From positions 5,160 to 69,159 of the forward strand of contig JAPPLG010000016.1 in assembly GCA_028819545.1 (NCBI GenBank): a stretch of 64,000 bases of DNA, given 5' to 3'. The DNA is from Bdellovibrionales bacterium (lineage in GTDB: Bacteria; Bdellovibrionota; Bdellovibrionia; Bdellovibrionales; UBA1609). The notes under the pieces were generated by a model. That model was not told the DNA's origin, made no database searches, and saw only the letters and a program-made list of their open reading frames with translations. Position numbers and translations under genes: made by a program. Positions 1,950-59,564 of this stretch are shown here, piece by piece (the stretch's first letter is position 1; every line of letters starts with the position of its first letter).

Positions 1950-2627
1950 ATGTTTGTTTTTAATAGAAAGATTTACAAACCTCTTTTGGTTATTTTCGGA
2001 TTTGTTCTTTTTTCCATAGCCTCTTATGTTATTGGATACCAAGTGGGCTTTAAATCATGGGGCAAACAAATTTCAATCTCACTGGATCCTGCTCTTTCTG
2101 TCAGAGGACTGGCTTCCACTGAATCCGCCGCCCGAAGCATAGCCACTGTTTCCAATGAAGAATATACCAACCCCCAAAACTTATTTGATAAAGCTCAAAT
2201 TCTTGAAAACACCCAATCAGATAGTATTCTCTTTGTCATCGGAAACCTTCTCCATACAGATGAACAGGGTAATACATCTTTTGTGTGTAAAAATTTCTCT
2301 CAAGTACAGCTTTGGTTTGAAGCTTTAGGCTTGGCCATTAAAGGTGAAAAGGTAATTATGACAATCAATACAGATTGTACAGAAAATAAAGACCATCAAT
2401 ATATTGGTCCTTTCAGCATCCCCGCAAAAAAAATCTTAGAATCATCCATTGTTGAAAGCACATTTAGTGAGAATAATAGCGAAATTCAATTTGAGAATGT
2501 GTCTCTATCCTGGCCTAAATCGTGGGTGCTGATCAAAGCTGATTTCAAAAAAGCTGGAACATCTGACTTTTCTGTAGTTACTGAAACACCGGAAACTGAA
2601 GACGATATTTTTGTTATTGAACTTTAG
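1950..2627 (+). CDS. Hypothetical membrane-anchored protein
   Basis: 225 aa with an N-terminal TM/signal anchor (LLVIFGFVLFSIASYVIGY). Its last ~60 nt are the sequence repeated at 3894 and 4976. Confidence 0.6.
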   Translation: MFVFNRKIYKPLLVIFGFVLFSIASYVIGYQVGFKSWGKQISISLDPALSVRGLASTESAARSIATVSNEEYTNPQNLFDKAQILENTQSDSILFVIGNLLHTDEQGNTSFVCKNFSQVQLWFEALGLAIKGEKVIMTINTDCTENKDHQYIGPFSIPAKKILESSIVESTFSENNSEIQFENVSLSWPKSWVLIKADFKKAGTSDFSVVTETPETEDDIFVIEL

Positions 2628-2632
2628 TTGCT
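2568..2632 (+). repeat. Junction repeat copy 1 (native 3' end of the 1950-2627 gene)
   Basis: TTTTCTGTAGTTACTGAAACACCGGAAACTGAAGACGATATTTTTGTTATTGAACTTTA recurs at 3894-3958 and, as a shorter copy, at 4976-5015. Confidence 0.9.
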
Positions 2633-2875
2633 TTTGCTGTCTGAAGAATTTGTAAAATATACTTCAGCAATTACTTCTTTTCCAGTTTTGAGCTTTTCAT
2701 TCTTTGAAATAAACTTTCTGGGCACCACTATTTGTGATTTTGATTCTAATGACAACAAAGTGACGTTTTTACCGTCGTACTTCATCACAACGCCCTTGAT
2801 TTTAACCGGTTCTACTACAGCCGCCCAGCTGAATTGCAGTATCATACAGAACAAAACATAAATAAATATTTTCAT
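2624..2875 (-). CDS. Small secreted hypothetical protein
   Basis: 83 aa with signal peptide MKIFIYVLFCMILQFSWA. Sits immediately upstream-adjacent to the 294-aa gene on the same strand. Confidence 0.5.
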   Translation of the reverse strand: MKIFIYVLFCMILQFSWAAVVEPVKIKGVVMKYDGKNVTLLSLESKSQIVVPRKFISKNEKLKTGKEVIAEVYFTNSSDSKSN

Positions 2876-3893
2876 ATTACCTCACTCCTTTCGATGATTT
2901 GAATAATTGAATCTCAGAACGAGGAGTATCATCAGTCCATGGCAGTGTTTGAATAGGGGATTCTGACGAAGGCTTATGAATGTTTACAGATACTTGCTGA
3001 CTATTGATACAGTCATCCGCATTAGGACACCGATTGGAATCTACAGGATCGCAGTAAACTGGTATGGTTTGATTTGGAAAACTGCCTACACGACATTTTA
3101 CTTCACCTATGCAAACCGCTGGAAGCTGACACAAACCATTGCTCTGTGCAAATACAACAGGTGAAGGAGTAGAGCCAATGTATTCGCAATATGAAACACT
3201 AGGATTTGTTGCAGAAACAGTTTTCCTGCGGATAGAAGTTGAAAAATCTTCTTGTACTGCACCAGCAGGAATAGGCCACTCTAACTCCCTGAAACTACTA
3301 CGCTCTATCTCCGGTGAAACAGCATTATAAGTAAAAATCAACTCATCCAGAGACGGTTCTTCCTCTGGACTGTCAGACCAACTTTGAGCGAGTTTTTTTA
3401 ATCCCTCTGCCCCTTTTATTTGAGCAAGATGGTTTTTATAATCGTCATTATCAGGATATTTTTCAGCATTATCCATTATTGATGCTACTTCTATAATTAT
3501 CTGTTCACGTTTATAAGCTCCCTGTGAATAATCTGCTCGCGGCCTTTCCCATTTTAGGCTGGAAGGAGAAAAGCCTGAGCTTTCCACCTCATCATAAACT
3601 TCTCGCATTGTTTTGTCCGGCATATATTTTTGAGCAAATAAAAGAAATCCTCTATCACTTTTGTAAATCCCGTTCGTCAAGATCGCTTGAATTTCCTGTG
3701 GTATGAAAGCGTTTGCCGTAAACATCATGAAAGCAAGTAGAAATAAAAACAAAAAATTCATAGAAACTCCTTTTCAAATTATCAAAGAGAAAATCCCAAG
3801 ATTTTATGATAAAACGAAACACAATTTGTGTTTATAAGAATCTATAAAAACTGTACCAATGTACTGTGAAAGATCCATGATGGTCAAAACAGT
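2633..3893. mobile_element. Accessory cassette A-I (two secreted-protein genes) bounded by junction repeat copies 1 and 2
   Basis: Lies exactly between repeat copies 2568-2632 and 3894-3958. No recombinase gene inside. Confidence 0.55.
2877..3761 (-). CDS. Secreted hypothetical protein with a Cys-rich C-terminal half
   Basis: 294 aa with signal peptide MNFLFLFLLAFMMFTANA and multiple Cys in the last 100 aa. Confidence 0.6.
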   Translation of the reverse strand: MNFLFLFLLAFMMFTANAFIPQEIQAILTNGIYKSDRGFLLFAQKYMPDKTMREVYDEVESSGFSPSSLKWERPRADYSQGAYKREQIIIEVASIMDNAEKYPDNDDYKNHLAQIKGAEGLKKLAQSWSDSPEEEPSLDELIFTYNAVSPEIERSSFRELEWPIPAGAVQEDFSTSIRRKTVSATNPSVSYCEYIGSTPSPVVFAQSNGLCQLPAVCIGEVKCRVGSFPNQTIPVYCDPVDSNRCPNADDCINSQQVSVNIHKPSSESPIQTLPWTDDTPRSEIQLFKSSKGVR

Positions 3894-4068
3894 TTTTCTG
3901 TAGTCACTGAAACACCAGAAACTGAAGACGATATTTTTGTTATTGAACTTTAAGTAGTTGCTAACGAGGCTGTTTCAACATGAGTAAGAAATCCCATAGT
4001 GACTTTGCCATAGACACTGCAGATTTTTTAGCTCGTTCTTTTTCTTCAGAAGAAAATTTTTCTAAACA
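3894..4068. repeat. Junction repeat copy 2: decayed fragment of the 1950-2627 3' end fused to a decayed 3' fragment of the CADD-like gene
   Basis: 3894-3958 matches 2568-2632. 3952-4068 matches 5016-5135 with about 12 differences in ~160 nt by manual alignment, including a 1-nt deletion. It is non-coding remnant sequence. Confidence 0.85.
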
Positions 4069-4124
4069 CTAGAAAGTGTTTCTTCAACAATCTGTTTTAC
4101 ATAAGATAAAATTAGAAATTATTG

Positions 4125-4499
4125 CTATAATACTTTGGATTGAAAATTTCTCATCATACAAATTGAAGGATCGATAGAAAAACAGAAAACACTTTGTTTT
4201 TCATCTAAAAGATAATTGATTGAAAAAGAACCACTCCCAATAATATCCATTCCGATAATAGCCATATATTCTCCTGTATCAAAACAACCAACTTTGTATT
4301 TAAGCAGGGTGATGTCATTTGATAGTTTTATGTCGATATAGTGGATAGGGCATGCAACTTCACTTCCATTTGCCATTCTAACTGTCTTGGCACTATCAAC
4401 ATTTCTTAGTTCCAGATTGGCAATAGTTTTTTTATGTACAACAGTAAATGTGGCTCCAGTATCCCATAACACCTTACCTCTCTTTTTTTTTATTTTCAT
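4125..4499 (-). CDS. Retropepsin-like (clan AA) aspartic protease, possibly frameshifted at an A9 tract with an upstream ORF from 4581
   Basis: LWDTGATFTVV (catalytic DTGA) and IIGMDIIG motifs. A 35-codon ORF (4581-4474) overlaps its start and would fuse by a 1-nt shift in the A9 run at 4483-4491. Confidence 0.7.
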   Translation of the reverse strand: MKIKKKRGKVLWDTGATFTVVHKKTIANLELRNVDSAKTVRMANGSEVACPIHYIDIKLSNDITLLKYKVGCFDTGEYMAIIGMDIIGSGSFSINYLLDEKQSVFCFSIDPSICMMRNFQSKVL

Positions 4500-4607
4500 T
4501 TAGTGGATTTAACAGAGAAATTTCTGTTTCAATTTGAGTAAAAAAAGAATTTTGATGAATAGAAATAAGTTTATGTGCCATATATATTCACTTATTATTT
4601 TAATATT

Positions 4608-4856
4608 TTAAGAATTGACGTTGATTCTAGATATATATTCAATTTTATTAGTTATTTCTTGGACAAGAAAACTTCCTGGAATAAGATTATTGTCCCTTAT
4701 ATATTGTCTTGCTAGATCTTCTGTATCAAAAATATCAATAACCTTTTCATTTTGCACAACAGCAAATTTTCCTTCATTTTTTTGAATCAAAGAAGGTAGC
4801 TTAGTTTTAAAAAACTCATAATTCTTAAGCCAAGACTCTTTAGATGGACACATCAT
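4608..4856 (-). CDS. Small soluble hypothetical protein, partner of the retropepsin-like gene
   Basis: 82 aa, co-oriented and directly upstream of the protease ORF. The GKFAVVQNEKVI...SFLVQEI pattern is reminiscent of small partner proteins seen next to such proteases. That resemblance is from memory and unverified. Confidence 0.55.
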   Translation of the reverse strand: MMCPSKESWLKNYEFFKTKLPSLIQKNEGKFAVVQNEKVIDIFDTEDLARQYIRDNNLIPGSFLVQEITNKIEYISRINVNS

Positions 4857-4975
4857 AGATAAGCTTACATATAATTTTTCAACTTATCAACTGTCAAATG
4901 AATAACTCTTACAAGCCATTTCAATACTTACAGAAAGTCTAGAAAAAGATATATTTGTTTTGCTGTAATTTATAA

Positions 4976-5135
4976 AAACACCGGAAACTGAAGACGATAT
5001 TTTTGTTATTGAACTTTAAGCAGTTGCTAACGAGGCTGTTTCAACATGAGTAAGAAAATCCCATAGAGACTTTGCCATAGACACCGCAGACTTTTTAGCC
5101 CGCTCTTTTTCTTCAGAAGAAAACTTCTCCAACAA
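4976..5135. repeat. Junction repeat copy 3 (short 1950-2627 3' fragment followed by the intact 3' end of the CADD-like gene)
   Basis: AAACACCGGAAACTGAAGACGATATTTTTGTTATTGAACTTTAAGCAGTTGCTAACGAGG... The overlapping stops (CTTTAAG) reconstruct an uninterrupted convergent junction. Confidence 0.9.
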
Positions 5136-5681
5136 AACTTCTATAGCCTGACGATGATAAATATCTGCAGATTTATGCTCTTCAAAGAAAGACAAAGTCT
5201 TTTTATCTGTAATGTGATAATGACTTTTCAAACCTGTCATCTTTGTCTCAGCCACTTCAGGCACTTGGTATTCATAGCTGTAAAGTGCAGACAGCCCTTC
5301 AGGATAAGAAGAGCGGCAGTGAGAGAAAAAAGTATCAATCACTTTTTTTATATTGGGACAAAGAACAGCTTGTTGAACTTCTTCTTTTGTTAAACCCAAA
5401 CCCTCTGCAAAAGACATCCACAATTCCGGATGAGGAGTGCCTCTTTGCCCTTCTTCATCATTTAAATTTTCCAGTAAAATTTTTCTGTCCTGAGCATTTT
5501 CACAAAGAGAGTGCAAAGCACTGATATATCTCGGGAAAGCAGACACATGATGATAGTATTGACTGGCATAGTACTTCAATTGACCTTTGGAAACTTCCCC
5601 TTTTTCCCATTTTTGGTAAAAAGTATGTTTCAGTAGGTGATAAGGAGCTAATGCTGATTTTAACTCTTGAACAAAACTCAT
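5016..5681 (-). CDS. CADD/PqqC/TenA-type heme-oxygenase-like (iron-containing redox enzyme family) protein
   Basis: 221 aa. HLLKHTFYQKWEKGEVSKGQLKYYASQYYHHVSAFPRYISAL and LNDEEG...HPELWMSFAEGLG match my memory of the CADD-like family. Confidence 0.8.
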   Translation of the reverse strand: MSFVQELKSALAPYHLLKHTFYQKWEKGEVSKGQLKYYASQYYHHVSAFPRYISALHSLCENAQDRKILLENLNDEEGQRGTPHPELWMSFAEGLGLTKEEVQQAVLCPNIKKVIDTFFSHCRSSYPEGLSALYSYEYQVPEVAETKMTGLKSHYHITDKKTLSFFEEHKSADIYHRQAIEVLLEKFSSEEKERAKKSAVSMAKSLWDFLTHVETASLATA

Positions 5682-5703: not shown

Positions 5704-5961
5704 TTATTTTTTCGATTTTTTGGCCATACTGTATTTTTTCATAAATTTTTCAGCTCGACCTTCTGTATCCACTAGACGTTGCTGTCCTGTATAGAAAGGG
5801 TGGGACTGGCTGGACACATCAAAAGTAAACAGAGGGTAAGTTTTACCTTTAATTTCTGTTGTTTCTTTTGTGGCCGCTGTGGACAAAGTCACTATTTCAA
5901 ATCCACAAGAAATATCTCTGAATACCACTTCTCTAAGCTTAGGGTGAATGTCTTTTTTCAT
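5704..5961 (-). CDS. rpmE: Ribosomal protein L31, type B
   Basis: MKKDIHPKLREVVFRD...HPFYTG. It lacks the CxxC zinc motif, so type B. The probable start is the MKKDIHPK Met rather than the ORF-track start at 5976. Confidence 0.9.
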   Translation of the reverse strand: MKKDIHPKLREVVFRDISCGFEIVTLSTAATKETTEIKGKTYPLFTFDVSSQSHPFYTGQQRLVDTEGRAEKFMKKYSMAKKSKK

Positions 5962-6792: not shown

Positions 6793-7152
<360 letters not shown>

Positions 7153-7225
7153 TTAAAATAATAAGTCATGCCTTTAAAAATAACTTTAAAGACCATAGTT
7201 TACACAGCTCATACAAAAATCATAA

Positions 7226-7248
7226 TTACATTAAGCTGTAGTCAGGGC
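7226..7248. repeat. Copy of the last 23 nt of the ETF-QO gene (direct repeat of 8478-8500)
   Basis: TTACATTAAGCTGTAGTCAGGGC vs TTACATGAGGCTGTAGTCAGGGC, 21/23 identical. The two copies bracket the ATPase gene. Confidence 0.65.
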
Positions 7249-7259
7249 TGAAAATTCTA

Positions 7260-8441
7260 TTATTTGAGAATTCTGCGGTACTTTTCTATTGTTTTTACAT
7301 AAGGTTCAACCCAAACATGTTCTCCAATTTTTCTACTTCTTTTTTCATAGAGAGAACAGATAATCACCGGAGTTTTTGGAAATTCTCTTTGAAAAGCTTT
7401 AATAGAATGTTTGTTTTTTATTTGCTTTCCAGATTTACATTCAATAGCCATAATCGGCTTTTTTCCAGAATGAATAAGAAAATCTATTTCCCACTTGTCT
7501 TTACGCCAGCACGAAATTTGATGTGCATACTCCATATAATCACGAACTCTAATAAGCTCATTGGCGACCCATGTCTCAAATAAAAAACCCAATTCCTCTG
7601 TTGCAGGTTTATCCGTCAACCTATTCTGAAGCGCCCTTACAATACCACAGTCAAAAAAATAAAATTTAGGACGAGCTTTTTTTCTCTCACTTCGATCAAA
7701 CGGCCAAATAAAACGACCCATCAAAGTATCCTCCAGAATAGAATAGTGCTCCTTCACTGTATTCATATGAACAGAGCATTCTCTGGAAATATTAGAAAAC
7801 TCAATCATTTGTCCATTACACTGAGCCGCTACATCTAAAAAACGGTAGAATGAACTTAAATTTCTAACCAAAGATTCTGCTTTTATCTCTTCTTTAATAT
7901 AGGTAGTGACATAACTTTTTAACTGCCTCACAACACGTTTATTTTGTTTTTGAGCTACCAAAGAAGAAATCAAAGGCAAAGATCCAAAAAGAAGAACATT
8001 ATGAATATTAAAATCTTTTCCTAACTCTTTTATAGTCAATGGATGCAGTTTTAAATCTAAAGCTCTACCGCCAAGTAAGTTAGACTTTCCTCTTTTTAAT
8101 TTCCGAGCACTTGAACCAGAAAGAAAAAATTGAAGATTTTTTTGGTCTATTCCCATTTGAACATAATCCAAAATAGATGGTACTTTTTGAATTTCATCAA
8201 TAATCACTTGAGAACCTGTTTTTAAAGCAGATATTTCTTCCCAAAACATCTGAGGGTGAGTTATGAAATCCTTCTCTAATTGAGGATCTAATAAATCATA
8301 AAACACAGCGCTTTTGCATTGACTCAGAAGATGTGTTTTACCTGTCATGCGAGGACCAAAAAGAAAACAAGAAGATGAGTAATCCTTCATATTCAGCTCT
8401 CTTTTATATATTATATTGTTATTTACGCTCATAAATAACAA
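7260..8441 (-). CDS. COG1373-type AAA ATPase with a C-terminal PD-(D/E)xK-like (DUF4143-type) module; true start may be 8432 or 8390
   Basis: Walker A GPRMTGKTHLL, Walker B VIIDEIQK, LSGSSARKLKRGKSNLLGGRA, and C-terminal WEIDFLI...AIECKSGK (D...ExK). Paralogous to 22471-23610 and 42862-44013. Confidence 0.85.
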   Translation of the reverse strand: MLFMSVNNNIIYKRELNMKDYSSSCFLFGPRMTGKTHLLSQCKSAVFYDLLDPQLEKDFITHPQMFWEEISALKTGSQVIIDEIQKVPSILDYVQMGIDQKNLQFFLSGSSARKLKRGKSNLLGGRALDLKLHPLTIKELGKDFNIHNVLLFGSLPLISSLVAQKQNKRVVRQLKSYVTTYIKEEIKAESLVRNLSSFYRFLDVAAQCNGQMIEFSNISRECSVHMNTVKEHYSILEDTLMGRFIWPFDRSERKKARPKFYFFDCGIVRALQNRLTDKPATEELGFLFETWVANELIRVRDYMEYAHQISCWRKDKWEIDFLIHSGKKPIMAIECKSGKQIKNKHSIKAFQREFPKTPVIICSLYEKRSRKIGEHVWVEPYVKTIEKYRRILK

Positions 8442-8452
8442 TATAATATATA
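8405..8452. promoter_or_regulatory. Perfect 21-bp-arm palindrome (6-nt spacer) at the 5' end of ATPase gene B
   Basis: TATATATTATATTGTTATTTA-cgctca-TAAATAACAATATAATATATA. It lies upstream of the likely start at 8390. Confidence 0.6.
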
Positions 8453-8477
8453 AATACTAGAATTGTAAAGCTCTTTT

Positions 8478-10079
8478 TTACATGAGGCTGTAGTCAGGGC
8501 CGGAGCCTCCCTCTCTTGGATTCCACCAGGGGCCTAAAACATCTGTAGCTTTGCAGTCCACACAGTTGGGTGCATTCACAATAAATTTTCCATTCTTTCT
8601 TTCATACACTCCAGCCGGACAAAAATTAATATAAAAATCCTGAACAGCTTCCGGAAGATCTTTGGAAACTTCCAAGTGAGAAGGAATATCATCTCTTGTT
8701 TTATTTCCGGAAAGATAAACAGCATCTGCTTTTGAATCAGAAGAAGTTTGATCTTTATTCAACAATCTTTTTTTCTGATGATCCGAAAGAAGTTTCTTCG
8801 GATTTAAATTTCCAGGAAAATAACCACCGCTGAGTATCATCAAACCCGCTTTGATAAATCCTATAATCTTTGCTTCCACCTGCAAAGTTCTTAAAACATT
8901 TCTCACCTTATACAAATCTTTACCAATAACAGATTTCTTCTTAATCACATCTTCAAAAGAAGCTGTTATGTTCCCCTGTTTTTTCTGAACTAAAAACTCA
9001 GCAGATGAAATCCCTGATAACATCGCATAATGAATACCTTTTAAAGAAGGGACGTTTACCAGCCCTGCCGCATCCCCCAATATAAAAACTCCTTCATCAT
9101 AAAGGCGGTCCGGAATACTATAAAAACCTCCTTCGGGAATCACCTTAGCCCCCCACTCCAAGCACTCTCCCCCTTCTAATATTTTTTTAAAAAGAGGATG
9201 CTCTTTCATCTCCTGAAATTTTTTATTTAAATTCCACTTGTTGGATGGATGATCCATCCCCGCCACCAAGCCAATGGAAATATTATTATTGGATAAAGGA
9301 TAGAGAAAGCTTCCTCCAAAACCTTCCAAAGGATACCCCACAGTATGGATGACATTTTTTGGAAGTTCTTTGACTTTCCATATCTCTTTTACCCCTAAAG
9401 CATATTGATCCGGATAATGAGAAGAAATATTTTTCCATTTCAACCAGGCTTGTGAAAGATTTCCCCTTACTCCATCTGCTAAAAAAATATTTTCAGCTAA
9501 AATATTCACAGGCTCCTGATACTGAGAAGTTTTTTCTCCATTTCTATCCAAACCGGAAGGTGTTGTTTGAATACCGATCACCTGACCTTTTTCTACAATC
9601 AGTTTATGAGCCGGAGTGCCCGGAAAAACATCCACACCCAACTCTTCTGCTTTTTTTCCAAGCCAGCGAACAACCTCACATAAAGAGGCTGTAAAGAAAC
9701 CCTTATTTCGCATCGTAGGAGGGGCAGGTATTCTGTATTGATTTTTTTTCGTCAGAAAATACATCTTTTCACTTTTCACAGATTGGCAAAAAGGCCAATC
9801 CTTGGATGTCATCTGAGGAAATAATTTTTTAAAAGCAACAGGATTGATAATAGAGCCGGAAAGGGAATGTCCTCCCAAACGTCCTGCTTTCTCTATCACC
9901 CCAATTTGCAAATCCGGAAGCAGTTGTTTTAAACGTATAGCTCCGGCTAAAGAAGCAGGGCCTGCGCCCACAAACAAAGCAGAAAAATTAAGAACTTCCC
10001 CTGAAGGACGTCCTTCAACAATTCTCTGATCCAAAGAATATTTTAATTGATAATCCTTTGGTATAAAACCTGAACCCAT
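8478..10079 (-). CDS. Electron-transfer flavoprotein:ubiquinone oxidoreductase (ETF-QO)
   Basis: 533 aa with an N-terminal FAD fold VGAGPASLAGAI and a C-terminal 4Fe-4S region FCPAGVYE...NAPNCVDCKATD. Confidence 0.9.
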   Translation of the reverse strand: MGSGFIPKDYQLKYSLDQRIVEGRPSGEVLNFSALFVGAGPASLAGAIRLKQLLPDLQIGVIEKAGRLGGHSLSGSIINPVAFKKLFPQMTSKDWPFCQSVKSEKMYFLTKKNQYRIPAPPTMRNKGFFTASLCEVVRWLGKKAEELGVDVFPGTPAHKLIVEKGQVIGIQTTPSGLDRNGEKTSQYQEPVNILAENIFLADGVRGNLSQAWLKWKNISSHYPDQYALGVKEIWKVKELPKNVIHTVGYPLEGFGGSFLYPLSNNNISIGLVAGMDHPSNKWNLNKKFQEMKEHPLFKKILEGGECLEWGAKVIPEGGFYSIPDRLYDEGVFILGDAAGLVNVPSLKGIHYAMLSGISSAEFLVQKKQGNITASFEDVIKKKSVIGKDLYKVRNVLRTLQVEAKIIGFIKAGLMILSGGYFPGNLNPKKLLSDHQKKRLLNKDQTSSDSKADAVYLSGNKTRDDIPSHLEVSKDLPEAVQDFYINFCPAGVYERKNGKFIVNAPNCVDCKATDVLGPWWNPREGGSGPDYSLM

Positions 10080-13446: not shown

Positions 13447-15895
13447 TTGGTTAAATGAATTTATTTCCCTTTCAGACCTTCAACCGCAGGACTTAGCTCA
13501 ACTGCTGAATGAAAGAGGCTTGGAAGTGGAAGCTTTATCCTCTGAGAAATTAGATCATGTGGTTATCGGTCAGATCACCAAAATTTACCCTCATCCTAAT
13601 GCTGATAAACTTCAAATATGCCATGTAAAAAAAGATAAAGACCAGGCTCCCCTATCTATAGTATGTGGAGCAAAAAATCCAAAAACTGGAGACAAAGTGG
13701 TTCTCTGTTTGGAAGGGGCGGTTCTTCCTGGAAATTTTAAAATTCAGGAAAGAAAAATTCGAGGAGAACTCAGTCAGGGAATACTTGCTTCCAAAAAAGA
13801 ACTTGGAATCTCTTCTGAAGACGACGGGGGTATTTTCATTTTACCCACATCTGCTCCCATTGGAAGCAGACTGGATGAATACTTAAAAACAAATGACACT
13901 ATTTTAGACGTATTTATTCCTCCCAACCGGGTGGATTTAATGAGCCACATTGGACTGGCACGGGAGCTTTCAAGCTTATTGGACAAACCTTTTCGCTTCC
14001 CTTTTGAACCTTATCATCATAAATCAAACACTTCCAACTTAGGAATTCCCAAAGGGCAAATGAAATATTCCAAAAGCCCTAAACTTCCTTTTGTTCCTTA
14101 CAAAAATTCTTTTAATGTCAAAGTATATGAAACTGATATTTGCCCCTATTACAGCGGACAAATGATGAAAGACGTACAAATCGGCCCCTCCCCCTACTGG
14201 CTTAAAAAAAGATTGGAATTGTTGGGTGTCAATTCTGTGAACAACATTGTTGATATCACCACCTGGATTTTACTGGAATGGGGCCAGCCTCTTCATGCCT
14301 TCGACTTGGACACTTTAGAAGGAGGCATCCACGTCAAAAAAGCAAAGTCCAAAGATCAAATGCTGGCTTTAAATGAAGATCAACTGACATTTCGAGGCGA
14401 TGAATTAGTCATTCGCGATGATAAAAAAAATCTGGCTTTAGCAGGTGTCATTGGCGGAAAAAGCAGTGCTATTTCTGATAAAACAAAAAATATTTTTATT
14501 GAATCCGCTGTATTTGCTCCTTATGACGTTCGACGTACTGCCAGGAGACTTGGCTTAAATACAGCATCCTCCTTTCAGTTTTCAAGAGGTGTCTTTCCCC
14601 ACACATCAATGCTGGCTCTACAAAGAGCCTGCTCACTGATCCAACAAGTTGCAGGAGGCTCTTTACAGGGAAGTCCTTACGAAGAAGGATCTTTTTCATT
14701 TGCACAAAAATCCATTACTATCAACCAAGAACAACTCAATGAACGTCTAGGGTATGAAGTTCCTCTGAATGAATTTACCGATTGGATGAAAAAAATGAAC
14801 TCCAAAGTGACAAAAAGATTTAGCAACATAAAAGTCACTCCTCCTTATTACAGAAAAGATGTAAATATTAAAGAAGATCTTATTGAAGAGTGGGCCAGGC
14901 TGAAGGGTTATGATTTTGTGCCGAAAGAGCTTCCGGTCTTTGCTCCTCAAAAATCTTTAAACAATAAGGAATTGAACTTTCTTGAGCGGATCAAACATAC
15001 TGTTAAAGAGCAAGGATATTATCAGGCTATTAATTATAGTTTTGTAGATCATACACTGCATAGTGAATTTTTAGGTGAAAAACCTGTTGCAGATATACCT
15101 CTTGGCCCTCCTATTTTTCTCACTAACCCCATCACTCAGGATTTGAACAGTCTTCGCCAGAGTTTGCTCCCCGGGCTTTTTCAAAATTTACTTTTTAATA
15201 TGCGGCATGGAGAAGATTTCGGACGGCTTTTCGAACAAGGGATCAGTTTTTTTAAAACAGGAAATAGGTTTGAAGAAAAACAGTATTTATCTTTTATGGT
15301 GTGGGGGCAAAAAAAAGACATATGGAATTCCAATCCACGTCCAACTCTTTTTGATTTGAAAAGCTCTATAGACAATTTATTAACATTGATTCAGGCTCCT
15401 GATTGGACTTGGACGGATTTTGAAGGTTCATTTCCATTTTTACATACAAAAAGACGCCTTTTACTAAAAATACAGGGGCAAACAGTGGGTTTTATTGGAG
15501 CTATCAACCCTATGTTGTCAGATCAAAATAAAATTCGAGGTGATATCTCGATGGGGGAGCTAAATCTATCTTTACTCTTGAATATTCCAAAAACAGAGTT
15601 CAAGTTCCAAAAACCTTCCCTCTTACCTTCTGTAAAAAGAGATATCTCCCTTCTCATCCCTAATGAGCAAAATGTAGAAGAAATTTTAAATTTTATGAAA
15701 AGTCATGCTCCTGCAGAATTCCGTCAAATCTCTCTTGTTGATTATTATGAAGGGGTTCAGAAGGGATTTCGATCTGTTTCTTTCCGTTTTATCATTCAAG
15801 GTTCTGATAAAACCCTCTCTGAAAAGCAAATCAGCTCCCTTCAACAGCCTATGGTAAAGGCTCTGTTAAAAAAATATCCTGTTCAGATTCGATAA
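13424..15895 (+). CDS. pheT: Phenylalanine-tRNA ligase beta subunit
   Basis: 823 aa with an N-terminal FNWLNEF and tRNA-binding domain (HPNADKL), plus B3/4, B5 and C-terminal FDX-ACB-like regions. Overlaps the pheS stop. Confidence 0.95.
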   Translation: MKMLYSFNWLNEFISLSDLQPQDLAQLLNERGLEVEALSSEKLDHVVIGQITKIYPHPNADKLQICHVKKDKDQAPLSIVCGAKNPKTGDKVVLCLEGAVLPGNFKIQERKIRGELSQGILASKKELGISSEDDGGIFILPTSAPIGSRLDEYLKTNDTILDVFIPPNRVDLMSHIGLARELSSLLDKPFRFPFEPYHHKSNTSNLGIPKGQMKYSKSPKLPFVPYKNSFNVKVYETDICPYYSGQMMKDVQIGPSPYWLKKRLELLGVNSVNNIVDITTWILLEWGQPLHAFDLDTLEGGIHVKKAKSKDQMLALNEDQLTFRGDELVIRDDKKNLALAGVIGGKSSAISDKTKNIFIESAVFAPYDVRRTARRLGLNTASSFQFSRGVFPHTSMLALQRACSLIQQVAGGSLQGSPYEEGSFSFAQKSITINQEQLNERLGYEVPLNEFTDWMKKMNSKVTKRFSNIKVTPPYYRKDVNIKEDLIEEWARLKGYDFVPKELPVFAPQKSLNNKELNFLERIKHTVKEQGYYQAINYSFVDHTLHSEFLGEKPVADIPLGPPIFLTNPITQDLNSLRQSLLPGLFQNLLFNMRHGEDFGRLFEQGISFFKTGNRFEEKQYLSFMVWGQKKDIWNSNPRPTLFDLKSSIDNLLTLIQAPDWTWTDFEGSFPFLHTKRRLLLKIQGQTVGFIGAINPMLSDQNKIRGDISMGELNLSLLLNIPKTEFKFQKPSLLPSVKRDISLLIPNEQNVEEILNFMKSHAPAEFRQISLVDYYEGVQKGFRSVSFRFIIQGSDKTLSEKQISSLQQPMVKALLKKYPVQIR

Positions 15896-15896
15896 A
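15833..15896 (+). repeat. Native pheT terminus: 64-bp sequence repeated perfectly at 23638-23701
   Basis: AGCTCCCTTCAACAGCCTATGGTAAAGGCTCTGTTAAAAAAATATCCTGTTCAGATTCGATAAA is identical at both positions. A diverged third copy lies at 22007-22053. Confidence 0.95.
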
Positions 15897-15960
15897 CCAC
15901 AAGCCATTCTTGTACGTAAAAGTTATTCTGAACTTGTTTCAGAATCCAGTGCATAGGAAA

Positions 15961-16065
15961 TACTTTGTATAAGCGGCTCAAAGCTCAAACATGCGTTTGC
16001 CACAGAACAACTTTCAGTCGTTCTGTGATCAAATCCGAACTCATTTGAGCCGCTTATACAAAGTA
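15961..16065. repeat. IR-flanked hairpin-core element, copy 1 (core in reverse orientation)
   Basis: 22-bp perfect IRs TACTTTGTATAAGCGGCTCAAA / TTTGAGCCGCTTATACAAAGTA flank a 61-nt core at 15983-16043. Confidence 0.9.
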
Positions 16066-16272
16066 TGTCCCTGCAAAGACAGGAGGCCAGCTTATATGCT
16101 ATGTAAAGGCTTGTTCTGTAAATTCCACCTAATATTACTCTATACATATAAAAGTTCTGTTAAAAACAAAGTAATTGAAAAATTTACACTTTTCTAAACA
16201 TCCTCTGTCAGTTTTATGAAGATTATGGTATAAAAACAAATCCATAACGTTGCTAAAGAGGATGTATTTTAC

Positions 16273-19200
16273 ATGAATACCCTGATTAAAAGTGTGTATT
16301 TAAAAAGCTGTACCCATTTTTTGTTTGTTTTCTTTTTTACACTTCCATCTCAATCTTTAGAGGAAACTTTCAATCTTTCACGCCCCTTCACAGTAACACA
16401 ATCTAGTTATCGACCAAATACTTTAGAAGAAAGCTTATATTACATGGAACTTTATGAGTTTCTTTCTAAAAATAAACATGCATTATCACTTTTAGAGTCT
16501 GCTCGAAAAGGCGGTGTACACTACAATTCTGCTCAATCAGAATTCAACAGATATTTATCAAACCCAGTATCTAATTTGAGAGAAGGTTTTGATTTGATAA
16601 ACAGAAATACTCATTTGAAGGCCAAAGCTCAGATAGGGGCTAAAATTTCAAATGCAGATATTGGATTATCCGCTGAAGTAGATTTAAAACGCCTTGGAAA
16701 TGACATATTAAATAGCTTGAGTAGTAAAGAATACAATCAAAAAGTTACAGACACTGCCCAGTTTTATACAAGAGAGATTTATGCGTGCTTAGAAAATAAT
16801 AATCAATGCTCTATAAATGCTCAAGTTCATCAAATACAAGCCTTGAAAGCCATACGATTCCATTTTCACGATTTTCCACAAGACAAAGATCAAGAAGGAA
16901 ATCGTTTAAACTTTGAAGAAAAATCCCAATATGCTTCTCCAGCACAAATAGAAATGGCAACTACTCTTTTTAATACTCATCAGCTACGAAGTATCTCAAC
17001 ACAAAATGAACAGAACACAGAAGAAATAATAAACGCCGTGAATACAAATACAGAGAGTGCTCAACAAATATCTCAGAAAGAAAAAGAGGAAATAATAACA
17101 GCAATAAATAAACATACAAAAAATATACAAGAGTCAGCTCTTATAGAAATGGAAAGGCTAGAACATCTAAGAAGAGAAAATATGAGACAAAACGATCCAG
17201 ATTATATGAATAGAGACCCAATTGTTCTGGCTACAAATAATAGTATTCAATCATGGGAAAAAGAAAAAGAACAAATCGCATCAGAGCTAGAGCAAGGCTC
17301 CATCACACAGGAAGAATACAGTAAAGAAATAGAAAACATTGATCGTACAATAAAAGAAAAACAGATAGATATTCAAGTTTATGAATTTAAAAAACACATA
17401 CAAAACGGAATAGCATGGGCGAATGCTGTAGAAGCAACTGGAAGAGTATTAGGAGCTCCAGAAGAGATCATCCAATTAAGCCGTGCAGGCTCAGCCAGCA
17501 TGCAAACAATCGGTGCTATAGGATCTATGTTTATAGCAGGATCCATAGACCCCACAGGGCTGACTTTAGCCCTTAATGGTGTTTCAATGCTTATCACAGC
17601 AATTTCAAATAATCCTAACTCAGAACAAATAATGATAGAACTGCTTGATGGCTTAAGAAAAAGACAAATACAAATTCTAAATAAACTTAATGAGATAGAC
17701 TTTAAAGTTGAAGAAATTCAACTCAAAGTGAATCATATTATTGAAATACTCCAAATGAATCATAATCAAATAACAGAAAAATTAGATCGAATTACAGATG
17801 ATCTGCAAAGAATTGAAAGTGAAATGATACTTGCAATAACAGAAGCAAAGTCCACTACAATGAAAGAGTCCCAAAAAAGAGGAGCTTTTTTTACTGATGA
17901 CGGCAGGGTGGTATTGGATGTATTAGAAAATTGGGAAAGACCTCATTTGAATGAAGTTATATCTCAATGTAAACACTATAAAGATCAATACGATAAAACT
18001 GGAAATATTAGATTTTACGACGACTATAATTGGTGTATTGATAAAGCTAGAAACCAACTCTTCATGATACAAGAAAGTTTGTCTGATATGTATCAAAAAT
18101 CCAGACACCGTTTTGGATCAGACACTTATATTGTGGAACAAAGTATTAATAAACTGAGCATTGAACAAGTTATTGATGAATGGAATAAATTAGTAGAAGA
18201 CCGAATTGGGATTTTCTCATCTATACACCCTTGGTTGAATCAACAATATTCAAAATATATGGCAAGCGACAGAAGATTCGGAGGCTTGTGGGCGGAAAGC
18301 CAGCCTCAGTGGGATGAATACAGACAGTTTTTAAACCGCATAAGAGAGGTGAATATTAAACATCCCTTATTTTATGATGAAGTTTTATCAGTATATGCAC
18401 CTTTAACAGAAAAACTTCCACTCCCCAAAAATCTCAGTTTTATCACAGAATCTAACATCACAGACTATAAAGATGCTCACCTGACTGAAATGTGCCAAAA
18501 TCTGAAACATATTGAAGATTTGTCTCAATACAATAGAGACCACCTCCAAAGAGCATGGCTGGTTTACCTTTATCTATCTGATCAATTGAAAAGGCAATTA
18601 AATAATCTAATGGAGAAACATATTGATCAATTAATAGAAAGACACGAAGAGCAAAGTAATAGCTTTGTTAACACTCCCGCCCTAAAAGAGCCAGACTGTA
18701 ACTGCAGTAGTAATTATGCACAAACAGAAGCAAAATTTTTCCAATATATATCCAGCCAAAAACAAACAGATATTTTTAGATACATTCAAAATCAAGGATA
18801 CAATATACATGATTTTATGAATATAAATCCTGAAGAAACTGCTCGAAAAGCCAGCAGGCGCCCTCATATAACCAACCCCTATCTTCTTCAAGAAGGATTT
18901 TTCAAAACTGTTCAAACTGGATGTGGAATGACAAGTAAAGGCCAGAGAAAAGACGTGGCCGATTTAAATCAACCCAAACAAGCAGAATTATTTGAAAAAA
19001 CACTGGAAGAAGTGCGAAGAGGATCACAAGGTGGCTGCTGGTTTATTGATCAATACGGTCTTTTTGGACAAACAGGCCAAAAAATACAATTAAGTCAACA
19101 GACAGGGCCTTATGAGTTTGAAGGTAGAGCTTTGGAAACAATGTGCCCCATTTTCGTTGTGAAGAAAACAGAAGGAACTATGAAAGATGAAGTGCAAAAG

Positions 19201-20349
19201 AGAGCTATCTGTTTAGAAACAAAAATACACAAGCTTGAAACCATATCAACACTGGATAATCTAGTTTTTGAAAATCTGTATGATTGGCCTGAAAGCCTCC
19301 CCATTGGAAAAGATTTAAAATTTATTGAAGAATCCCGTAATAAAATTTTTCATAATGAAAAACAAATTGATATTAATGAGCCTGCAATTTACGTATTCTT
19401 TAGGCAAAAAACTATGAAAGAAAACCCTGTTTATCATACAAAGCACAGCAGTTCTTTTATAAACTATAATTCAGCTAATAACACAACACCCAAAGAAGGA
19501 GGCCTTTTTACACTAAGTCATTATAAAATAGCTTATGGCTATTCCCGACAGCAAAGTGAAATAGTAGATTCTCCGCACTATAGAACTCCTGATTCTCCAG
19601 AGTACATTGGTAATATGACTTTGCAGAATCGAAATGGCAATACCATTTCATTTGGAAAATATAATGGTATTATTGAAGATAATACATATCAACAGGTGGA
19701 AACAGCTACTCAAAATAATTACCCAATCAGAATAGACACTCAATGGATTCGAGGAAATTTCGATAAACAAAATTATTGGACCATTAAAGATAATCTAGAT
19801 TATGAAAATACGGACAGCCATGGAATATGCCTTAAAAAAGCTTGTTTGGAGTATGAAGAAATAAAAGAGGCAGATAGAGAAGCCTGGATTCAAACAGCCG
19901 CTCAACACATAAGACAACTACAAGGTTTTTTAAACACTGATATTAAGAGATGGATCAACAAAGCCAATCTTGAAAATGATGACAATACTCCAAAACTGCA
20001 TATGTTGCTGCCAAAAAGTGCACTGGTTTTAGATACAATGGCTAGAGCTGGATACGGACAGTCTTTAGAAACACAGCCCGATTTATTAAATATAGTTGAA
20101 GAAATAAAATCATTAAAAGAAAAAATAAACACTCAAAATACAGAACAAATATTAAAAATTATTCAAAGTTTAAGAGATTTAAACGCTAATCAAGGTATTC
20201 CCTCTCTGCCTATTCAACCGATAGTACAAGAGGTGCCTGTCGGACTGGGAGACACCAAAAGCCGACATCAGGCCTTAAATATTATATTGAACAGAAATTA
20301 TCTCAGCCCAAGAGAATGTCGCTATTTAAAAAGAAGAGAACAACAATGA
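16273..20349 (+). CDS. Giant secreted coiled-coil protein of unknown function
   Basis: 1358 aa with an N-terminal signal-like segment and long charged heptad-like regions. A ~45-aa Gly/Ala-rich hydrophobic segment is encoded around 17479-17612. Confidence 0.75.
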   Translation: MNTLIKSVYLKSCTHFLFVFFFTLPSQSLEETFNLSRPFTVTQSSYRPNTLEESLYYMELYEFLSKNKHALSLLESARKGGVHYNSAQSEFNRYLSNPVSNLREGFDLINRNTHLKAKAQIGAKISNADIGLSAEVDLKRLGNDILNSLSSKEYNQKVTDTAQFYTREIYACLENNNQCSINAQVHQIQALKAIRFHFHDFPQDKDQEGNRLNFEEKSQYASPAQIEMATTLFNTHQLRSISTQNEQNTEEIINAVNTNTESAQQISQKEKEEIITAINKHTKNIQESALIEMERLEHLRRENMRQNDPDYMNRDPIVLATNNSIQSWEKEKEQIASELEQGSITQEEYSKEIENIDRTIKEKQIDIQVYEFKKHIQNGIAWANAVEATGRVLGAPEEIIQLSRAGSASMQTIGAIGSMFIAGSIDPTGLTLALNGVSMLITAISNNPNSEQIMIELLDGLRKRQIQILNKLNEIDFKVEEIQLKVNHIIEILQMNHNQITEKLDRITDDLQRIESEMILAITEAKSTTMKESQKRGAFFTDDGRVVLDVLENWERPHLNEVISQCKHYKDQYDKTGNIRFYDDYNWCIDKARNQLFMIQESLSDMYQKSRHRFGSDTYIVEQSINKLSIEQVIDEWNKLVEDRIGIFSSIHPWLNQQYSKYMASDRRFGGLWAESQPQWDEYRQFLNRIREVNIKHPLFYDEVLSVYAPLTEKLPLPKNLSFITESNITDYKDAHLTEMCQNLKHIEDLSQYNRDHLQRAWLVYLYLSDQLKRQLNNLMEKHIDQLIERHEEQSNSFVNTPALKEPDCNCSSNYAQTEAKFFQYISSQKQTDIFRYIQNQGYNIHDFMNINPEETARKASRRPHITNPYLLQEGFFKTVQTGCGMTSKGQRKDVADLNQPKQAELFEKTLEEVRRGSQGGCWFIDQYGLFGQTGQKIQLSQQTGPYEFEGRALETMCPIFVVKKTEGTMKDEVQKRAICLETKIHKLETISTLDNLVFENLYDWPESLPIGKDLKFIEESRNKIFHNEKQIDINEPAIYVFFRQKTMKENPVYHTKHSSSFINYNSANNTTPKEGGLFTLSHYKIAYGYSRQQSEIVDSPHYRTPDSPEYIGNMTLQNRNGNTISFGKYNGIIEDNTYQQVETATQNNYPIRIDTQWIRGNFDKQNYWTIKDNLDYENTDSHGICLKKACLEYEEIKEADREAWIQTAAQHIRQLQGFLNTDIKRWINKANLENDDNTPKLHMLLPKSALVLDTMARAGYGQSLETQPDLLNIVEEIKSLKEKINTQNTEQILKIIQSLRDLNANQGIPSLPIQPIVQEVPVGLGDTKSRHQALNIILNRNYLSPRECRYLKRREQQ

Positions 20350-21980
20350 AAATTTTAATTTACTTCATAATCACTTTAGGTCTTATAAACTGCAGTCAAG
20401 GGCTTGCTACCGATGAACCTTCGAAAACTCCCGCTCTTTCCGAACAACTTGAAGAAACCACAGAAGAGCCAATAAACTCACTTAAAACACAAGTGTTTAC
20501 TTTTGACCAAATCAAAGCTATGACTCCCTCTGAAATAACAATCCGAATAGGCAAAGATAAATCTATTCCTCATTTTAAAGATTTTGAAAACTGGCCATTA
20601 TACGAGTTAAACACACAACAGTTGGGAAGACTATTTTATCAAATTATTCTACACGGATATCTTGGTAATGTCACACCTGAACAAATTCACTCTATAAGAC
20701 CAGAATCAATAAACAGAATAGACTATATTATAAGATGCCTCTCCCCTGAGCAAACAAAAGCTATGACTCCAAAACAAATTTCGAGAGTTTGGACATTTGA
20801 TTTTACTCCAGAACAAGTTGCACAGCTTAATGCCAGTCAAATAAACTCTTTATCCAGCAATGATCTCACTGCTGAAAAAGTACATGTCATCTCTCCTGAA
20901 ACTATCACAGAAATAGGTCACTATAGCATACCTTTTGATCGATTAACACGCGCTCAAGTGGAAGCCGTCACCCCTGAACAAATCTCTTATGTAGATGAAT
21001 ATGGACTTCCTGGGGATGGAATTTCAAAGTTTACAGTCGAACAAATCCCATGGCTGACTCCTGAACAAATTTCAGCTCATCCTATCGAAGTCATTCAATT
21101 TCTAAAACCAGAACAATTAGCGGCCATGTCTCACGAACAATTACAAGCTATCTCTATAGAAAAATCTTACGAGTTCAAAGACCGCCACTTGAGAGCTTTA
21201 TCCTTTAGCCAGCTTTTACTATTTGAGGAAAATCATAAGATCGATACAATTATAGGCTTTTCAGCTAACGGAAGACAGTTTTTCCAACAAACAAACCCTA
21301 AAGATTATCCACAGTATGAATACTATATGCAGTTTATTTTTCCAAATGACTTTAAACATGTCTCTTATACACAGGCTTTAAGTTTTTCTCACAATTTACT
21401 GGCAGTGTTAAGCCCTGAGAGAATCAAGTGGATGCCTTATTATGCCAAAGTACTAACCCCTCAGTTGATTCAAAAAGATGCTACTGAGCCAGATAAGTGG
21501 TTGATCACAAAAGAGCAGTTTCAAGCTATTCCTGTAGAGCAGATACCAGATTTGAGTTTAGAATTTCTTGAAGCCATGACTAATGAGCAAGTTTATTGGT
21601 TTACTTTTGAGCAGCTCGCTCACCTGAATAGAGATCAATTAAAAAGACTTTTTACTTCTGGATTTAGTGAACGCCCGCCTATGCACGTCCCAAAAGTATT
21701 TAGCATTATACATATTGCTGAACAAACAGAAGAGGGAGATGAGTGGCTAAGAGGCCCTATGAAGGAAGTGATTATGGAACATATGGAAATAGAATGTGCA
21801 CAATTTTATGGTTGCAGAGAGAGATGGATGAAATTTCCTGATCTTCCACAAAGCATGAAAGATAGTTACTTTTCCCCTCCTCCTCAGCCTGAAGAACCTA
21901 TCTTAACTTATTTGCCACATCTAATCGACTGTCAGCAACTTAGCAATCTTATAACCAATAGTAAAAATAGATCAAAATGA
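20346..21980 (+). CDS. Lipoprotein with degenerate ~10-aa TPEQI-type repeats
   Basis: Probable start is MKILIYFIITLGLINC (lipobox) at 20346, overlapping the upstream stop as ATGA. Many copies of [LF]TPEQ[IV]xx[LIM]. Confidence 0.7.
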   Translation: MKILIYFIITLGLINCSQGLATDEPSKTPALSEQLEETTEEPINSLKTQVFTFDQIKAMTPSEITIRIGKDKSIPHFKDFENWPLYELNTQQLGRLFYQIILHGYLGNVTPEQIHSIRPESINRIDYIIRCLSPEQTKAMTPKQISRVWTFDFTPEQVAQLNASQINSLSSNDLTAEKVHVISPETITEIGHYSIPFDRLTRAQVEAVTPEQISYVDEYGLPGDGISKFTVEQIPWLTPEQISAHPIEVIQFLKPEQLAAMSHEQLQAISIEKSYEFKDRHLRALSFSQLLLFEENHKIDTIIGFSANGRQFFQQTNPKDYPQYEYYMQFIFPNDFKHVSYTQALSFSHNLLAVLSPERIKWMPYYAKVLTPQLIQKDATEPDKWLITKEQFQAIPVEQIPDLSLEFLEAMTNEQVYWFTFEQLAHLNRDQLKRLFTSGFSERPPMHVPKVFSIIHIAEQTEEGDEWLRGPMKEVIMEHMEIECAQFYGCRERWMKFPDLPQSMKDSYFSPPPQPEEPILTYLPHLIDCQQLSNLITNSKNRSK

Positions 21981-22006
21981 AAATTTTAATTTACTTCATA
22001 ATTGAT

Positions 22007-22117
22007 GCTGGTGAAAGCTCTGTTAAACAAATATCCTGTTCAGATTCGATAAACCACAAGCCATTCTTGTACGTAAAGGTTATTCTGAACTTGTTTCAGA
22101 ATCCAGTGCATAGGAAA
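22007..22117 (+). repeat. Diverged internal copy of the pheT terminus plus downstream left-end module
   Basis: 22007-22053 aligns to 15850-15896 with several substitutions. 22054 onward is near-identical to 15897 onward. Confidence 0.85.
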
Positions 22118-22224
22118 TACTTTGTATAAGCGGCTCAAATGAGTTCGGATTTGATCACAGAACGACTGAAAGTTGTTCTGTGGGCAAAACGCATTTTTGA
22201 GCTTTGAGCCGCTTATACAAAGTA
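22118..22224. repeat. IR-flanked hairpin-core element, copy 2 (core in forward orientation, inverted relative to copy 1)
   Basis: Same 22-bp IRs as copy 1. The core at 22140-22202 equals the reverse complement of 15983-16043, differing only by two 1-nt indels and one substitution (61 vs 63 nt). Confidence 0.9.
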
Positions 22225-22403
22225 TTTCCCTGCTTCAACACTTCCTTCGGTTGACACTTCATCACTTCGCTCCGAACTTGATCCGGAATCCAGTCGTACT
22301 TGCAGACATTCGATCAGCAGTTTCGGTTGACACCTACACTGCCTCGCCCCCTGCAAAAGCAGGGGTCCAGCTTACATGTAAAGGCTTACTCCATAGACTC
22401 CAC

Positions 22404-22429
22404 TTAACATTACTCATGAGTAATGTTAA
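22404..22429. promoter_or_regulatory. Perfect 13+13 bp palindrome upstream of ATPase gene C
   Basis: TTAACATTACTCA|TGAGTAATGTTAA, 42 nt upstream of ATG 22471. TTGACA at 22436-22441 follows. Confidence 0.55.
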
Positions 22430-22470
22430 CTATACTTGACATTACTCATATCTCATATTACTCTCTTTTC

Positions 22471-23610: not shown

Positions 23611-23637
23611 CACATACCAAGCTCCAATAGAGCCAAA

Positions 23638-59477: not shown

Positions 59478-59564
59478 AACTCAATCTTACACATTGTTAA
59501 ACATATGTCATAGGCCAAAACAACTTAAAATTCAGCAAAGTGATGAGGCGCCAGCCGATATCAC

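Follow-up and report, generated by a model that had tools for sequence, protein, structure and literature searches.

The 64,000-nucleotide (nt) stretch of contig JAPPLG010000016.1 from a Bdellovibrionales bacterium (GenBank assembly GCA_028819545.1, positions 5,160 to 69,159), referred to below in its entirety as the window, carries a lone ATPase-nuclease gene directly behind the gene for ETF-ubiquinone oxidoreductase (ETF-QO), and the unit that holds this gene, designated cassette B, is bracketed by two copies of the ETF-QO gene end. ETF-QO (8478-10079, minus strand; 533 amino acids (aa); Pfam ETFQO_UQ-bd and Fer4_ETF_QO) has orthologues with 82-88% identity in Bdellovibrionales metagenome-assembled genomes. 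Read from position 8500 down to 6793, the order of features is the ETF-QO stop, a 23-nt spacer at the upstream cassette edge (8455-8477), a palindrome (8403-8454), the 390-aa open reading frame (ORF) of the ATPase-nuclease, an 11-nt spacer from the ATPase stop to the distal repeat at the downstream cassette edge (7249-7259), the relic copy of the ETF-QO end, 91 nt and a HIT-family gene. The last of these (6793-7134, minus strand; Pfam HIT), which with its 91-nt upstream region occupies 6793-7225 directly after the relic, is the predicted neighbour of ETF-QO before insertion. The ATPase-nuclease gene is the single gene between the 23-nt copies, and the unit measures approximately 1.23 kb (7249-8477).

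The gene-attached copy of the repeat consists of the final 23 nt of ETF-QO with the stop codon included (8478-8500, minus strand; TTACATGAGGCTGTAGTCAGGGC), and the displaced or relic copy, in which PDYSLM-stop is still readable, lies at 7226-7248 (minus strand; TTACATTAAGCTGTAGTCAGGGC). The two copies agree at 21 of 23 positions and lie 1252 nt apart in direct orientation, and in the frame of ETF-QO both read P-D-Y-S-L-M-stop, the two mismatches falling within one leucine codon as a synonymous swap (CTC to TTA). When 730 nt from each side of ATPase gene B were compared without gaps, the observed repeat score of 17 was matched by none of 2000 dinucleotide-preserving shuffles (maximum 16, mean 10.3), and a blastn-short comparison of the repeat returned an E value of 7e-4 (940 x 940 nt search). 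An assembly artefact was ruled out because the copies differ from each other and two assemblies agree, positions 7000-8700 being identical base for base, with both copies present, in an independent assembly of the same sample (Logan SRR10996925).

The gene between the copies (7260-8432, minus strand) encodes an AAA+/winged-helix/PD-(D/E)xK protein of 390 aa when read from the ATG at 8432. Gene callers placed the start at the ATG at 8390 (376 aa); the N-terminus of the longer protein (MSVNNNIIYKRELN) fits the family consensus MxINNNxLYKRE, and the start was therefore assigned to the ATG at 8432, which is the centre of the palindrome. Matches of protein B to Pfam AAA_14 (E 8e-20) and DUF4143 (E 8e-28) were noted, and in an alignment of 22 sequences the Walker A motif (GxxGxGKT), the Walker B motif (DE) and residues E317 and K319 were invariant and D303 nearly so. 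The PADLOC hidden Markov model for PDC-S01 (PDLC04790) matched protein B (E 2e-48) as well as two paralogous proteins of the window, A (E 2e-51) and C (E 9e-53), and the D...ExK catalytic and Walker motifs are intact in all three. The AlphaFold model of protein B (predicted local distance difference test score 89.7) may be read as an AAA+ core, a lid, a winged helix and a C-terminal alpha/beta nuclease domain; the best PDB fold matches (Orc1/Cdc6, RFC and RuvB) were generic to AAA+ proteins only, and no solved relative was found by sequence search of the PDB.

The palindrome at 8403-8454 is perfect, with 23-nt arms and a 6-nt spacer, and is centred on the start codon (ATG, 8432-8430). Its arms vary between four homologues with complementarity kept, i.e., they co-vary, and the family repeatedly shows palindromes of the TGTTATTTA...TAAATAACA type at the start codon or shortly before it, stems of at least 12 being present at 22 of 88 ATPase ORFs compared with 13 of 302 other ORFs. 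Start-codon palindromes were located at 8403-8454 and 22404-22449 in the window, in metagenomic loci that carry close homologues (L007, 4980-5029; L008, 1553-1600; L009, 4963-5010) and in many of the loci numbered L010-L089. Some of these palindromes enclose a TTGAC box, and the right arm of those in the B-like group doubles as coding sequence for the conserved N-terminal NNNI(I/V/L)YK. The palindrome is probably an auto-regulatory operator, presumably bound by the winged helix of the protein itself. An Rfam scan of the whole window returned tRNA-Gln only, and therefore neither the palindrome nor an inverted-repeat element of the window (described below) belongs to a known RNA family.

The limits of the unit were also evident, independently of the repeat, from comparisons with other genomes. 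The closest homologues of ATPase B, 74-80% identical, were found on other long metagenomic contigs in three unrelated genomic contexts, and DNA homology of cassette B to these extended only from approximately 8470 to 7269 (the ORF and the palindrome region, with about 40 nt upstream), starting between 8452 and 8470 and ending at the repeat edges. The GC content of cassette B is 32.3% as opposed to 39-40% in its flanks, and cassettes B and C (the latter described below) are both at 32% as opposed to 38-40% for flanking genes. One homologue (L008, 79% identical) is enclosed together with a 221-aa ORF by a 129-nt repeat (98%), and the end of the gene upstream forms part of this repeat; a flanking repeat above chance was not found for the close homologues of L007 and L009 or for the second gene of L008. 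No inverted repeat pairing the two ends of cassette B was found, and integrase or transposase domains were detected neither in the cassettes nor in the approximately 40 window ORFs that were scanned. Cassette B is almost certainly a real inserted cassette, and it may well be a horizontally acquired, self-contained single-gene unit with its own operator-like palindrome and promoter region.

Two further paralogues in the window are arranged in the same manner. Cassette A (22009-23701, plus strand; ATPase gene 22423-23610) is bounded by 45-nt repeats at 22009-22053 and 23657-23701 (93%) and is composed of a diverged copy of the pheT end (22009-22053), a 369-nt leader (22054-22422), the ATPase gene and a second pheT-end copy (23638-23701), the latter being identical at 64 of 64 positions to the true pheT end at 15833-15896. 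This identity of the outer pheT copies fits either a true duplication or a very recent event. The start codon of ATPase A sits within the palindrome CATTACTCATGAGTAATG, and protein A is 24% identical to protein B. Cassette C (42787-44165; ATPase gene 42862-44013, minus strand) is bounded by 67-nt repeats at 42787-42853 and 44098-44164 (94%), of which the first belongs to the 3' end of a metallophosphoesterase gene (42787-42854; stop codon TAG) and the second, the relic (44098-44165), has stop codon TAA; protein C is 38% identical to protein B, and gene C is convergent with its target gene. Since the three window paralogues are mutually 24-38% identical, they are old paralogues and not recent copies. 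All three are bracketed by repeats, of 23 nt (B), 45-64 nt (A) and 67 nt (C).

The same footprint was noted around three window inserts without an ATPase or nuclease match, referred to as X1, X2 and E2. The end of the gene at 1950-2627 is repeated at 3894-3952 (59 nt, 97%) and at 4976-5018, and positions 3910-4056 match 4976-5123 over 148 nt (95%). Insert X1 (2628-3893), which holds one 294-aa ORF with no Pfam match, has 59-nt copies of the upstream gene's end on both sides, and X2 (4057-4975; 28% GC), which holds a retropepsin-like gene (4125-4499; weak match to PADLOC candidate PDC-M08B) and an 82-aa ORF, lies between 148-nt copies of a whole gene junction. X1 and X2 are nested (2568-5132) between the convergent genes 1950-2627 and TENA (5016-5681). 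The E2 block (15897-22053; approximately 5.7-6 kb) follows pheT directly and contains two lipoprotein-like genes (16273-20349 and 20346-21980), the second with ALTTAQ repeats. It opens with a leader of approximately 250-370 nt common to cassette A and closes with a 27-nt relic of the start of a third paralogue (MKILIYFII, 21976-22002), followed by the diverged pheT-end copy. The inserts at pheT seem to have been added in tandem at a single site.

Both leaders (15956-16070 and 22113-22229) contain an inverted-repeat element with perfect 27-nt arms and a 63-nt loop. The loop runs in one direction in the first leader and in the reverse direction in the second, suggesting that the segment between the arms undergoes flip-flop inversion. 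Directly adjoining tRNA-Gln (47646-47717) on its 3' side is a tandem repeat (47159-47629; 2.6 copies of 184 nt; no Rfam match), the unit of which shares approximately 80% similarity with the inverted-repeat element in the leader of cassette A, and a partial copy was noted at about 59408-59482. Elsewhere in the window, the enolase ORF (57514-59352) reads as 612 aa with Pfam enolase domains from residue 198 only, indicating either a start called too far upstream or an unusual N-terminal extension.

The original prediction had been that the last 23 nt of ETF-QO recur at 7226-7248, that the sole gene between the copies is an ATPase with Walker A/B and C-terminal nuclease-like motifs, and that this architecture is repeated with diverged paralogues at 22.0-23.7 kb and 42.8-44.2 kb. 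Each of these points was borne out by the results described above, i.e., by the shuffles and the second assembly, by the AAA_14 and DUF4143 matches with conserved motifs, and by the repeats of cassettes A and C. Bracketing of this kind proved not to be specific to the ATPase, however, given the three window inserts that lack it and show the same footprint.

The relatives available for comparison were at most 89% identical (78-89%). In the four in which the ETF-QO site was examined (L005, L006, L090 and L091), the slot between ETF-QO and HIT held a different gene each time, and the last 40 nt or so upstream of HIT were conserved with L090. The ETF-QO relic is present in this genome alone, none of the four relatives having one in the slot. 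The predicted empty-site junction would join the ETF-QO body directly to ...GCCCTGACTACAGCTTAATGTAATTATGATTTTTGTATGAGC. For other inserts, empty sites were seen in L005, in which ETF-QO is 88% identical: there the pheT stop is followed by 44 nt and then by HU, which represents an empty site for cassette A together with E2, and the TENA gene and the orthologue of gene 1950-2627 are convergent and 14 nt apart, which represents an empty site for X1 and X2. An empty metallophosphoesterase site (cassette C) was not found, both of two relatives having Sel1-like genes at that position; in relatives the metallophosphoesterase gene ends in TAA and the slot is variable, with other genes in it.

Differences between the two copies of a repeat were unevenly distributed over codons. 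Of nine substitutions between the TENA end and its relic, eight were at third codon positions (binomial p = 1e-3), as were three of three between the pheT copies and three of three between those of gene 1950-2627. The differences look allelic and not like random decay, a pattern that fits incoming DNA with a donor version of the gene end. A fill-in target-site duplication, i.e., staggered nicks followed by fill-in, was considered and set aside because the third-position bias favours allelic copies, with the reservation that later allelic replacement fits the bias equally well. The leucine codon CTC of the gene-attached ETF-QO copy is that of the more distant relative L006, and the three closest relatives have TTG. 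At approximately five informative sites (in B, C and TENA), comparison with relatives of 78-89% identity favoured the relic copies over the gene-attached copies as relative-like. On these sequence comparisons, the gene-attached copy may have been imported and the distal copy may be the native end.

The frequency of the footprint in the family as a whole was determined from 71 family ORFs in 80 metagenomic loci (39-60% identical), the loci collected earlier and the window, with a direct repeat of score 16 or more within 700 nt on each side as the criterion. Thus defined, repeats bracketed 13 of 71 family ORFs, and among neighbouring ORFs matched for size the count was 5 of 156 (Fisher p = 2.4e-4 overall, or 2.4e-3 when the window was left out), whereas in the inverted-orientation control the counts were 1 of 71 and 2 of 156, respectively. 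No repeat was detectable for approximately 80% of the surveyed family members. The repeats found were mutually unrelated, ranged from 18 to about 190 nt and came from AT-rich and GC-rich organisms; several take in the 3' end of a gene or a tRNA, and on the stop side the edge frequently lies no more than 11 nt from the ATPase stop codon. Among the positives of the neighbouring-ORF set is a lone YhcG/DUF1016 PD-(D/E)xK gene (L059, 1371-2426), which lies at 1186-2538 inside a 45-nt direct repeat (93%) containing GC-rich hairpins. At another locus (L069, 5836-7783), three copies of a tRNA 3' end (5836-5850, 7145-7165 and 7763-7783) are arranged in tandem at the tRNA gene, with the ATPase gene between the first two copies and a 199-aa ORF between the last two. 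In loci L095-L104 (the contexts of protein P0038), a family member is fitted tightly between co-oriented genes (466, 348, 271 and 967 aa), with 42 nt on its upstream and 22 nt on its downstream side and a second paralogue nearby, as an example of an 'embedded' arrangement. Recent transposition was looked for and rejected, the identical proteins P0075 and P0038 being present in 13 contigs each and in one context only each. Family members were found on 276 of 72,556 plasmids and in 4 of 50,697 phage records; given the latter count, the family is not a phage gene.

Among described phenomena, the best fit to these observations is a pattern described for restriction-modification genes as 'insertion with long target duplication' (Nobusato et al., 2000, as cited in Furuta, Abe & Kobayashi, 2010; PMC2853133), to which the cassettes are likened by analogy. 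In that survey, long and variable target duplications, often overlapping gene 3' ends, were reported around restriction-modification genes without mobility genes; cases were mostly from naturally competent species and included all restriction types, among them the lone Type IV nuclease gene mcrA, and the mechanism was left unexplained, with a double-strand break suspected (PMC2853133). Shared with the present cassettes are minimal inserts of nuclease-encoding defence or selfish genes that lack a transposase or integrase, repeats that often overlap the 3' end of the neighbouring gene and enrichment of the footprint over average genes. Repeat lengths were 30 to more than 400 bp in the published survey, in which a 30-bp cut-off was applied (PMC2853133), as opposed to 23 to about 190 nt here, the repeats of cassettes A (45-64 nt) and C (67 nt) lying above that cut-off. 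The cassettes differ from the published cases in that the PDC-S01 protein, an AAA+/PD-(D/E)xK protein, is not a recognised restriction or modification enzyme and is unaccompanied by a methyltransferase, in that non-nuclease inserts of the same genome show the same footprint and in that the ETF-QO locus lacks an empty site. Cassette B probably belongs to the long-target-duplication class. PDC-S01 itself was named in PADLOC as a 'phage defence candidate' on the basis of guilt by embedding in other defence operons, is reported to rank as the fourth most common system and awaits validation (bioRxiv 10.1101/2024.01.29.577857; PMC12988326), and DUF4143/COG1373 is listed in the PD-(D/E)XK superfamily with no function assigned (PMC3424549). 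The window paralogues resemble PDC-S01 in their model matches (E 1e-48 to 1e-53), in the fusion of an ATPase to PD-(D/E)xK and in being single-gene systems, whereas in the literature PDC-S01 is a defence candidate only; no publication linking PDC-S01, DUF4143 or COG1373 to flanking target duplications or to mobility was found.

The recombination route, the direction of the event (insertion and not loss) and the function of the gene are as we infer them in what follows. Cassette B would have integrated directly behind ETF-QO by break-and-repair recombination in which no transposase or integrase took part. Host recombination after uptake of DNA from a diverged relative, with one homologous and one illegitimate side, would have joined the incoming DNA within the last ETF-QO codons, so that the working ETF-QO gene kept, or received, a complete 3' end and the resident 23-nt end came to lie beyond the insert. 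The ATPase-nuclease would have travelled as cargo and would most probably be a defence or selfish gene retained for its effect on DNA; the cargo reading is suggested by the three window inserts that carry the footprint without an ATPase or nuclease match. One-sided homologous recombination accounts for variable repeat length and for allele-like differences between copies; it is known mainly from transformation experiments, usually with deletions and not duplications. Horizontal transfer followed by host break-repair integration, with the ATPase-nuclease as cargo, is on this evidence the account that we tentatively put forward.

Several results weigh against that account. The repeat at ETF-QO, at 23 nt, is below the 30-bp cut-off of the published survey, and natural competence of this lineage is only presumed. 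An empty ETF-QO site was not found in L005, L006, L090 or L091. Family members show the footprint approximately five times as often as neighbouring ORFs do, and its edge on the stop side frequently lies within 11 nt of the ATPase stop, either of which would suit a role for the gene itself; because the neighbouring ORFs were mostly core genes, the enrichment may also reflect only recent acquisition or insertion and not necessarily self-mobility. Moreover, a diverged allele that later took the place of the working gene could have produced the same third-position pattern as incoming donor DNA. With respect to the original prediction, insertion of a lone cassette was upheld insofar as homology edges, other contexts, the variable slot and low GC define a discrete unit, while the empty site sought in relatives was obtained for the pheT cassette (in L005) but not for ETF-QO. 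The expected association of paralogues with repeats was seen as enrichment, yet the prediction had taken a lack of repeats around most copies as evidence against it, and by that standard the approximately 80% without a repeat count against the idea, although old repeats would decay. Placement of the insertion at the stop codon itself may be inexact, the distal copy possibly being native and the gene-attached copy imported, as far as the few informative sites indicate.

An alternative in which the gene moves itself, which we consider less likely, is that the cassettes are autonomous, nuclease-driven mobile genes. By analogy with mobile endonuclease ORFs (mORFs) of fungal mitochondria, which are the closest mechanistic analogue, the ATPase-nuclease would cut an uninterrupted target near the end of a conserved gene, and repair from a cassette-bearing copy would bring in the cassette along with a substitute for the gene end, the native end staying behind on the downstream side. 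The mORFs insert behind a gene with a foreign C-terminal end and displace the native end, creating C-terminal gene duplications in atp6 of Allomyces and in atp6, atp9, cox2 and nad3 of Glomus (PMC3630166). The order in these mitochondrial hybrids, i.e., gene, inserted C-terminus, endonuclease ORF and native C-terminus (PMC3630166), is the order seen here, where copy differences are likewise compatible with coding and the putatively native copy seems, weakly, the nearer to relatives. Intact D...ExK and Walker motifs in all three paralogues, the enrichment of the footprint, cassette edges tight against the ORF, the second lone PD-(D/E)xK gene type within a 45-nt repeat (L059) and the discovery of the family as genes 'embedded' in other operons (bioRxiv 10.1101/2024.01.29.577857), of which L095-L104 is an example, are also consistent with self-mobility, as are relic copies slightly closer to relatives than the gene-attached ones, a comparison that amounts to approximately five informative sites. 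In contrast, three window inserts have the footprint and no nuclease, near-identical copies at different sites were not found, the targets share no common sequence, orientation to the target varies (C being convergent), and most family members lack repeats. The mORFs, furthermore, encode homing endonucleases of the LAGLIDADG or GIY-YIG type, frequently continue the frame of the host gene and have had their mobility shown biochemically, whereas the cassette gene is a separate transcription unit of variable orientation with an ATPase domain. That PDC-S01 genes in general are single-gene mobile elements, their own nuclease cutting behind conserved genes and the element being copied in with a replacement gene end, seems rather unlikely; if true, they would be prokaryotic counterparts of the mitochondrial mobile endonuclease ORFs, and the enzyme behind 'insertion with long target duplication', unexplained since 2000, would be identified.

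Readings that depend on a dedicated recombinase fared less well, and those built on a transposon, an integron or an integrase were rejected because their defining parts are absent. Thus, a DDE/insertion sequence-type transposon would call for a transposase and for inverted repeats pairing the ends, neither of which is present, and for a short target duplication of fixed length, whereas repeat length here differs from site to site (18 to about 190 nt); an integron gene cassette would have an attC hairpin at its 3' end and IntI/attI nearby, whereas the sole palindrome here lies at the 5' end over the start codon, no attC-like site is present, and the cassettes have no integrase and do not form an array; and a tyrosine or serine recombinase gene, as expected of an integrase-mediated integrative element, is not in the cassettes or the scanned window ORFs. 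A restored gene end with a displaced or duplicated copy is what integrative elements leave at the 3' ends of genes or tRNAs, and homology-facilitated illegitimate recombination does the same. The repeats could be attL and attR sites, the cassettes then being integrative elements directed to the 3' ends of genes that have decayed or are mobilised in trans. Such elements typically bring a copy of the target 3' end, giving imperfect, coding-compatible repeats, and both the three tRNA 3'-end copies around the ATPase and neighbouring ORF in L069 and the tandem accretion at pheT, which resembles att-site arrays, would agree with this. Site-specific recombination is nonetheless improbable, since, unlike integrative elements, the cassettes have no recombinase of their own or among the approximately 40 ORFs scanned, are only 1.2-1.6 kb with one gene, have a repeat of different sequence and length at every site, and have homologues 74-80% identical at unrelated sites. 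Least probable of all is that no insertion took place, the ATPase being ancestral at the site and lost or replaced in relatives and the 23-nt match being due to chance or a local slip. The shortness of the repeat and the failure to find an empty ETF-QO site in four relatives would be explained, but not the absence of comparable scores among 2000 shuffles, the reading frame and stop retained in the relic, the occurrence of the pattern in three of three paralogues and in unrelated metagenomes, the confinement of homology to the cassette or its GC content below that of the flanks.

With host integration of a horizontally acquired cassette as the tentatively preferred reading, PDC-S01 genes, which are among the most abundant predicted defence genes, seem to move like restriction-enzyme genes in the absence of a transposase. 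They travel as minimal, self-regulated one-gene units with a footprint like that of restriction-modification genes, and this footprint provides exact edges for the unit together with a probable operator and argues for selfish or restriction-like behaviour. With one gene and many independent insertions, the family is a tractable model for studying the mechanism of this mode of insertion. The findings also call for caution in inference from defence islands, in that an 'embedded' position may reflect the mode of insertion and not only function.

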